Shown: piece by piece, positions 23,050 to 23,369 of the stretch | Position numbering within the stretch: position 1 is the stretch's first letter | Layout: each line of letters opens with the position of its first letter | Source of the DNA: a virus | Lineage: Duplodnaviria > Caudoviricetes | Strand: one strand, 5' to 3' | Virus record (IMG/VR): IMGVR_UViG_3300013121_000023 | Coordinates: 32,001-96,000 of that record | Length of the DNA: 64,000 bases | Program-made: the position numbers and the translations under genes | Notes under the pieces: generated by a model | Databases searched by the model: none | What the model was told of the DNA's origin: nothing | Seen by the model: the letters and a program-made list of their open reading frames with translations, nothing else

Positions 23050-23369
23050 CTCAGCATGTCTGCGCACGTACGCATAAACGCTGTCTGTGAGAGGGCAACG
23101 CTCTCATTCATTGCAGCCCATTCTGCAATACTCGCCTCACCCAAGACTTATACGTGCGTCTTGGTTAATTCGTCGCTACCGGCGCTCAGCGACGCGATGT
23201 GGCGGTCAAACACCACCATCCGTGGCATCGAGCCACGGTTTTCCCTTTACAAGGTTGGCTGGTACAACCTTGTACACGTGACCCCTTGCCTGGTTTTGCC
23301 CAGGCTTTGGGAATTAGACGTTTCGGCCGGTCGGGCATTCCGGCCTAGGTATGTTTTCTTTTCATACCT
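23050..23369 (-). ncRNA. Candidate ncRNA: array of about 11 adjacent non-identical hairpins
   Basis: Back-to-back 6-10 bp stems with complementary loops; ends at terminator 23009-23044. Confidence 0.6.

Follow-up and report, generated by a model that had tools for sequence, protein, structure and literature searches.

A chain of unlike hairpins in the early-gene block of an uncultivated phage: probable gene for a stable non-coding RNA

What is encoded by a gap of 745 nucleotides (nt), densely set with short inverted repeats, between two small genes of an uncultivated phage? The stretch of DNA analysed here, called the window, is 64,000 base pairs (bp) long and corresponds to bases 32,001-96,000 of a 177,132-bp IMG/VR phage record with direct terminal repeats; coordinates refer to the window unless the genome is named. 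The gap separates the minus-strand open reading frames (ORFs) 23848..23345 and 22599..22231 and lies within a long run of small minus-strand genes, the early-gene block. It holds the element under study, RNA2 (23050-23369); two further RNA candidates in the same genome, RNA1 and RNA3, serve below for comparison. RNA2 is well supported as a new RNA gene, although no function can be assigned to it as yet, and very probably encodes a stable non-coding RNA of ~350 nt read from the minus strand. The whole reading favoured here, in which such a gene supplies a platform or decoy of hairpins acting in trans, is given a probability of roughly 0.55.

The hairpin array and its transcript

Perfect inverted repeats with a stem of at least 6 bp and a loop of 3-11 nt were counted in 320-nt windows along the whole 177,132-bp genome. 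The interval 23050-23369 is the genome maximum, with nine perfect hairpins in 320 nt (window mean 1.33, standard deviation 1.15), and the next densest interval, with seven, is RNA3. Composition shuffles of the region (n = 300) yielded a mean of 0.44 hairpins and never more than 4. Two imperfect hairpins, H5 with its G-U pair and the composite H10, bring the chain from the nine perfect repeats (H0-H4 and H6-H9 in Table 1) to about 11. The predicted fold of the minus strand reaches -157.4 kcal/mol (z = -7.37), a value that none of 100 dinucleotide shuffles equalled, and that of the plus strand -141.0 kcal/mol (z = -5.13). The patch has a GC content of 0.51-0.55 against 0.36-0.44 in most flanking windows. 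An earlier note on this DNA, made from the letters alone, had described about 11 consecutive stems, nine of them quoted, in a GC-richer patch of AT-rich surroundings, with a G-U pair favouring the minus strand. All nine quoted stems are indeed present as perfect inverted repeats, the two imperfect hairpins complete the count, and the wobble at 23200-23218 is real: the minus strand has a U-G pair there, where the plus strand would have a mismatched C-A. The hairpin density, which the note had proposed to compare with shuffled controls, lies far above them.

Most stems measure 6-7 bp and most loops 5-10 nt, and short A-rich linkers run between the hairpins. The loops (AAAAGAAAA, AAUGCCCGA, GCAAAA, UACCAGC, UCGAU, GUUUG, GAGCGCCGGU, GCACGUAUAA, AAUGGG and CGUUGCC) have no common motif. 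Because the long-range helices of the minimum-energy models differ between strains, RNA2 is read here as a string of about 11 independent, non-identical short hairpins rather than as one compact multi-junction fold.

Table 1. Features of the RNA2 locus and the assembled RNA contigs that fall on it (window coordinates)
Feature	Position	Strand	Description
Promoter-like element	23382-23374	minus	GTAATAAGA; core ATAAGA 23379..23374; within last codons of upstream ORF
RNA2 predicted transcript	23010..23368	minus	~350-360 nt; ends inferred
H0	23347..23369	minus	7-bp stem, 9-nt loop; perfect inverted repeat; overlaps stop and last codons of ORF 23848..23345
H1	23325..23345	minus	GGCCGG / CCGGCC, 9-nt loop; perfect repeat and fold
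H2	23279..23315	minus	GCCUGG / CCAGGC (perfect repeat 23288-23305), extended by CCC/GGG; three more pairs in most strains
H3	23248..23274	minus	10-bp stem, 7-nt loop; perfect repeat
H4	23220..23238	minus	7-bp stem, loop UCGAU; perfect repeat
H5	23200..23218	minus	UGGUGGU / ACCGCCA, U-G wobble, 5-nt loop; from fold
H6	23171..23194	minus	7-bp stem, 10-nt loop; perfect repeat; without listed variant in any strain
H7	23141..23164	minus	7-bp stem, loop GCACGUAUAA; perfect repeat; without listed variant
H8	23110..23129	minus	7-bp stem, 6-nt loop; perfect repeat; without listed variant
H9	23088..23106	minus	6-bp stem, 7-nt loop; perfect repeat
H10	23052..23083	minus	composite CAGC...GCUG; 4-bp closing stem (23052-23055 with 23080-23083), inner 5-bp stem; from fold
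Intrinsic terminator	23008..23044	minus	perfect 11-bp stem 23017-23044, 6-nt loop, then UUUUUAGCUAC
RNA2 contig, metatranscriptome X16	23100-23358		depth 6.2; RNA1 contig 22753-22958, depth 4
RNA2 contig, metatranscriptome X17	23107-23315		depth 87.3; RNA1 contig 22726-22932, depth 79.5
RNA2 contig, metatranscriptome X18	23035-23353		depth 3; no RNA1 contig

The array is framed by signals of the phage's own type. A promoter matrix was derived from 23 ATAAGA sites located ahead of genes or tRNAs, with the sites of RNA1, RNA2 and RNA3 held out. The promoter-like site of RNA2 scores 14.6 in this matrix, ranks 31st among 354,124 genome positions and stands above two of the training sites; the corresponding sites of RNA1 and RNA3 rank 19th and 27th. 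Sites of this motif class, G[GT][CAT]ATAAGA followed by an A/T-rich stretch, stand before early genes, the tRNA cluster, the suppressor tRNA, RNA1 and RNA3. The earlier note had suggested a separate but weak promoter, GTAATAAG, near 23374-23381: the site does belong to the phage's promoter class, with the rank given above. The strong terminator with which the note closed the array was likewise recovered as the 11-bp stem and its UUUUUAGCUAC tail. The hairpin 23017-23044 is not listed by a simple terminator scan, and it has the form expected of an intrinsic (Rho-independent) terminator, a stem-loop directly before a U run on the transcribed strand. In the genome, TTTTAGCTAC occurs 11 times against ~0.3 expected and TTAGCTAC 31 times, both usually straight after a terminator hairpin; genes of this phage usually end in a hairpin followed by a UUUUUAGCUAC-type tail. 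A fixed tail, TTT(T)TAGCTAC, follows terminator hairpins genome-wide, for instance at window positions 22640, 23008, 22192, 24898 and 33150. In the early block, an ATAAGA promoter 24-32 nt after such a tail makes a terminator-promoter cassette the boundary between genes.

The neighbouring genes, the promoter motif and the terminator all point to the minus strand. Transcription of RNA2 would most likely start at ~23365-23368 from the phage-type promoter and end near 23010.

Expression was followed in four sequencing runs placed on 21600-24500, namely the metatranscriptomes X16, X17 and X18, from three studies, and the DNA run X12. Each metatranscriptome holds a contig from RNA2, two of them also one from RNA1, and the two kinds of contig never join. 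None of the three has a contig in the flanking genes, 22182-22666 and 23443-24500, both of which are covered by the DNA run. The RNA1 contigs lie overall within 22726-22958, at depths like those of RNA2 (4 vs 6.2; 79.5 vs 87.3). Since carried-over DNA would give even cover, RNA2 and RNA1 are two separate stable RNAs, present at levels far above those of the neighbouring mRNAs. The RNA2 contigs of X16 and X18 begin at 23358 and 23353, 16-21 nt downstream of the promoter-like site. At the other side, those of X16 and X17 stop at 23100 and 23107, near H9, a weak hint of a shorter 3' form. RNA cover ends before 23359-23370, which is at most a weak hint on the true end of RNA2.

Natural variation, coding capacity and relatives

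Strain differences leave the hairpins intact. X17, the strain that differs most, matches at ~93% identity across 209 nt and carries eight listed substitutions and three indels. Its substitutions break 0 of 51 pairs, where eight random substitutions break 3.2 on average (P = 0.017 for none broken). In H4, two of them, 23225 G>T and 23233 C>A, compensate each other and replace a G-C by a U-A pair. In H3, 23256 T>C turns an A-U into a G-U pair on the minus strand and would give a C-A mismatch on the plus strand, and the H3 loop has one substitution and a 4-nt insertion. The changes in H5 (23207, 23210 and an added T after 23211) are all in the loop, and the remaining X17 changes are in loops and linkers. 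H2 varies in other strains: the linked alleles 23313 A>C, 23280 G>A and 23279 T>A, present in X16, X12 and L004, add a G-U and two A-U pairs, and the loop is shortened by a 2-nt deletion in X18. The hairpins refold in all three variants, and natural variation preserves them.

The two halves of the array differ in how much they vary. All 11 listed X17 changes fall in 23207-23315 and none in 23107-23206, and neither X12 nor X18 has a listed change in 23035-23206. As judged from these sequences, the 3' half (H6-H10) looks more constrained than the 5' half.

The same strains bear on coding capacity. The indels within RNA2 (+1, +4 and -1 nt in X17; +1 and -2 nt in X18) are not multiples of three and shift every frame, and RNA2 is therefore not coding. 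A 121-codon plus-strand ORF, broken by strain indels and without a relative among 5.8 billion proteins, was rejected as spurious, and a 50-codon minus-strand ORF, frameshifted in X17 and X18, was likewise discarded as a gene. The earlier note had held that its proposal would fall if the region were translated or untranscribed; the frame-breaking indels speak against the one and the RNA contigs in three studies against the other.

No known RNA family accounts for the array. Searched over the whole window, Rfam 15 (4227 models, including GOLLD, ROOL, pRNA, tmRNA, 6S, CsrB, RNase P and the group I intron) gave no match at gathering thresholds, and at E up to 10 over 22400-23600 only chance-level matches appeared, such as GcvB (18 bits, threshold 42) and small nucleolar RNAs. 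ARAGORN found neither a tRNA nor a transfer-messenger RNA (tmRNA) in the 64-kb window; with its thresholds lowered to 60-80% it returned implausible tmRNA and tRNA models, none of them supported in RNA2. No relative of RNA2 emerged from blastn against 50,697 GenBank phages, from an exact RNA2 24-mer in IMG/VR, or from JGI metagenome contigs searched with an H7 20-mer and with a stems-only pattern of H9 plus H8, in collections that may lack records very close to the window. Searches by nhmmer, blastn and a covariance model of H4-H9 against the phage's own genome and five related phages, at the loci of a gene for a 1219-residue protein, matched only the source. RNA2 thus looks lineage-specific, and we file it as a new RNA family among phage-encoded stable structured RNAs. 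In the 177-kb genome, RVT_1 (reverse transcriptase) is absent, while control genomes match; TROVE (Ro60) has no match; and an RNase III gene is absent. Retron-type, Y-RNA-type and phage-RNase III processing models are therefore removed.

Proposed role and competing explanations

In the reading favoured here, RNA2 would act in trans as a multi-site platform or decoy, presenting several different hairpins to proteins or nucleases in the early, host-takeover phase. H6-H10 would be its sequence-specific part, and for the 5' half the only constraint would be to keep its fold. An RNA anti-CRISPR (Racr), or another mimic of a host hairpin, would be a sub-case of the decoy idea. This function is a tentative proposal, clearly less probable than the existence of the gene. 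Several points weigh against it and against the evidence for the gene. RNA2 is without a known partner, and nothing links it to defence or to a host pathway; loops that lack a common motif also speak against its being a sponge for one protein. Assembled contigs show neither strand nor exact ends, so that both are predictions for RNA2. The strains compared are near-identical (93-99%) and share ancestry, so covariation rests on very few events, and the variant lists are incomplete, with some differences unlisted. The low variation of the 3' half could reflect recent recombination instead of selection. In L004, the 5' part of RNA2 is 96.3% identical as against 99% for the adjacent coding sequence, and the idea that RNA2 is better conserved than its flanks was rejected on these figures.

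Of the competing explanations, ranked from a 3'-untranslated-region (3'-UTR) fragment through kissing or multimeric loops and a barrier in cis to a DNA element, the foremost grants RNA2 no promoter of its own and makes it the stable 3'-UTR-derived tail of the 23848..23345 mRNA, cleaved from the message or surviving the decay of its coding part, and protected from ribonucleases by H0 and the other hairpins. RNA2 directly abuts the upstream ORF, whose stop codon H0 overlaps, and the RNA contigs begin (at 23353 and 23358) within H0, in the position expected for a hairpin that protects a 5' end; moreover, there is no TAGCTAC ~30 nt upstream of ATAAGA, unlike the arrangement at RNA1 and several early genes. 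However, the score of GTAATAAGA falls among those of the phage's real promoters, whose class also serves RNA1 and the tRNA genes, and no RNA contig in the three studies reaches the upstream coding sequence. A 3'-UTR origin is accordingly unlikely. The position of the array, at the 3' end of a gene and before its terminator, also suits hairpins that work in cis, blocking 3' exonucleases, backing up the terminator or guarding against Rho, in which case the RNA itself would have no function; hairpins are classic 3' stabilisers, and the loops here have no common motif. Against such a role, the hairpin string is abundant while the upstream coding sequence is absent from the RNA contigs, so no stabilisation of the mRNA is visible. 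Furthermore, 11 hairpins plus an 11-bp terminator go far beyond any other gene end in the genome, the array has a promoter-like site of its own, and the loops of its 3' half are without listed variation. A purely cis-acting array is quite improbable. Still further from expectation, to the point of being very remote, is an action of the palindromes as DNA, whether as protein sites, cruciforms or hairpins of an origin, of packaging or of recombination, with transcription incidental. All stems but one are perfect inverted repeats and would serve equally well as DNA signals, but abundant RNA is confined to the element, H5 and the X17 form of H3 contain G-U pairs, which have no DNA equivalent, cumulative GC skew does not turn at the site, and palindromes that all differ offer no common binding site.

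The earlier note had preferred a kissing-loop scaffold or a multimerising RNA. This would mean that kissing loops hold RNA2 compact, or that self-complementary loops give homo-multimers as in ROOL, GOLLD and phi29 pRNA. Natural phage RNAs do multimerise through kissing and palindromic loops (PMC12286853). In RNA2, the best loop-loop match, 7 nt between the H7 loop (GCACGUA) and UACGUGC in H10, lies in the part without listed variation, and 4-nt palindromes occur in the loops of H4 (UCGAU) and H7 (ACGU). The candidate loops of H4, H7 and H10 show no listed variation, so that variation speaks neither for nor against the H7-H10 pairing or the UCGA loop. Loop complementarity is at chance level: the 7-nt match has P = 0.105 in 1000 loop shuffles, and four loop pairs share at least 4 complementary bases where 5.0 are expected. 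The gcaa/ttgc pair that it quoted is destroyed by the natural 2-nt loop deletion in X18, the CACGUG linker palindrome is a minority allele, and pairing of RNA2 with RNA1 or RNA3 shows nothing beyond shuffles. By our own reckoning, 4-base palindromes are also to be expected by chance in ~100 nt of loops. With loops no more complementary than shuffled ones, the scaffold or multimer of the note is unsupported, and kissing or multimerisation appears improbable. On a broader conjecture, RNA2 would found a class of phage RNA not described before, in which many different hairpins form a scaffold. This scaffold would bring several host or phage proteins together in one particle, or would self-assemble through its apparently invariant 3' loops (H7-H10, with the palindromic H4 and H7), alongside the equally abundant RNA1 in an RNA-based host-takeover toolkit; the conjecture is rather unlikely.

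Genomic setting and comparison with known RNAs

RNA1 (window 22640-22962, minus strand) has its own promoter, GCTATAAGA, the site ranked 19th in the matrix. RNA3 (genome 116,506-117,040, L007:506-1040, plus strand) is a gene-free, structured stretch with the promoter GTCATAAGA and a terminator, and has no Rfam match. The three have a promoter class in common, and a terminator followed by TTTTTAGCTAC in RNA1 and RNA2 or by the variant TTTTTTTAGTACC in RNA3, but neither RNA1 nor RNA3 resembles RNA2 in sequence or by model. In related phages, the same divergent gene arm contains a small gap that is structured and free of genes (L013:8876-9136, L009:8656-8927 and L012:8288-8927, minus strands). 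These gaps have a GATAAG-type promoter, an RNA start ATGGAAGG, GTGAAGG or ATGAAGG, like the ATGGTGGAAGG of RNA1, and a terminator with a TTTTCTAGTACC-like tail. Their 5' ends resemble RNA1, not RNA2, and RNA1 may have relatives across the phage group.

The protein encoded directly upstream of RNA2 (ORF 23345-23848, minus strand) has the most basic 35-residue C-terminal tail among 414 ORFs of at least 80 codons, with 16 lysines or arginines and no aspartate or glutamate. This tail is partly encoded by the A-rich promoter DNA, and strains differ in it by in-frame indels of 9, 12 and 15 nt. One relative, 90% identical, is known, and its 1-kb contig shows only alleles already seen. The protein might bind nucleic acid, which is a lead and no more. 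Pfam, PHROGs and the ESM Atlas were uninformative on the proteins flanking RNA2, and in IMG/VR none of four proteins (the two flanking ones, a baseplate-J-like protein and the tail sheath) has relatives, nor does a 379-residue protein near RNA3.

The phage genome has a GC content of 46.1%, tail sheath and baseplate genes, and proteins mostly without family assignment. In GenBank, the closest are Vibrio phages D181, D148 and D69 and Salmonella phage Arash, and the similarity to them, ~35% identity, is confined to a short portion of the tail sheath. The 1219-residue protein already mentioned (window 28856-32515, plus strand, no known family), encoded 5.5 kb from RNA2, has more than 400 homologues, the nearest 43% identical and most on contigs of 177-199 kb with a GC content of 44-68%; the phage is therefore a member of a large group. 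One homologue is encoded by Pendulispora rubella (genome size 13.6 Mb), which may point to a prophage or to the host. ARAGORN lists 10 tRNA genes at genome positions 123,406-135,485, among them tRNA-Leu(CAA), tRNA-Leu(UAG) and an amber-reading tRNA with the anticodon CUA; tRNA-Leu(UAA) is not one of the 10. A patch of 70% GC at 24900-25100 was rejected as a further RNA and corresponds to a small Ala/Gly-rich gene (window 24896-25222, minus strand). This gene has an in-frame TTA directly before its terminator hairpin, and under the standard code its frame continues through the hairpin to a TAG within TTTAGCTAC.

It is becoming clear that large phages produce abundant structured RNAs, hardly any of which has an established role. 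For an uncultivated phage, the support for RNA2 is unusually clean, combining a promoter and a terminator, expression in three metatranscriptome studies and variation that preserves structure, and the architecture is odd, with about 11 unrelated near-perfect hairpins in a row. The RNA2 stretch was found in runs of 14 studies that sampled activated sludge, bioreactors, soil and wetland, which means that experimental material is available, and at ~350 nt the RNA is small enough for structure determination. If it is a decoy or a scaffold for host factors, an RNA-based mechanism would be added to host takeover.

Among known RNAs, the CsrB/CsrC and RsmY/RsmZ sponges act in trans as series of hairpins that carry one motif, GGA, in most of their loops. 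RNA2 is similar in being an abundant string of short hairpins with a terminator and, as predicted, a promoter of its own, but its loops share no motif, all its stems differ, and Rfam gives no match of the CsrB type. The function of phi29 pRNA (RF00044) depends on complementary loops between copies. RNA2 lacks a match to that model and its loop complementarity is at chance; the phage itself is no phi29-like podovirus, since it has tail sheath and baseplate genes and a genome of 177 kb that carries terminal repeats. In T4, a large virulent phage, RNA C and RNA D (species 1 and 2) are small stable RNAs of 120-140 nt that are encoded within the tRNA gene cluster and accumulate as tRNAs do. They are akin to RNA2 as stable RNAs that a large phage makes from its own promoters, with functions still unknown, and differ from it in that RNA2 lies in the early-gene block, is ~350 nt long and has no tRNA-like part.

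ROOL and GOLLD (RF03087, RF01998; PMC12286853) are considerably larger, with many GOLLD members exceeding 800 nt (PMC12286853), and RNA2, at ~350 nt, has no covariance-model match even at E up to 10. Their multi-pseudoknot fold differs from the simple hairpin chain of RNA2. The tRNA island that neighbours these RNAs has no counterpart at RNA2, where the 64-kb window holds no tRNA and the nearest lies ~68 kb away. What RNA2 has in common with ROOL and GOLLD is that each is an abundant, structured phage RNA, its function and protein partner unknown, with a 3' part that is conserved or, in RNA2, appears to be.

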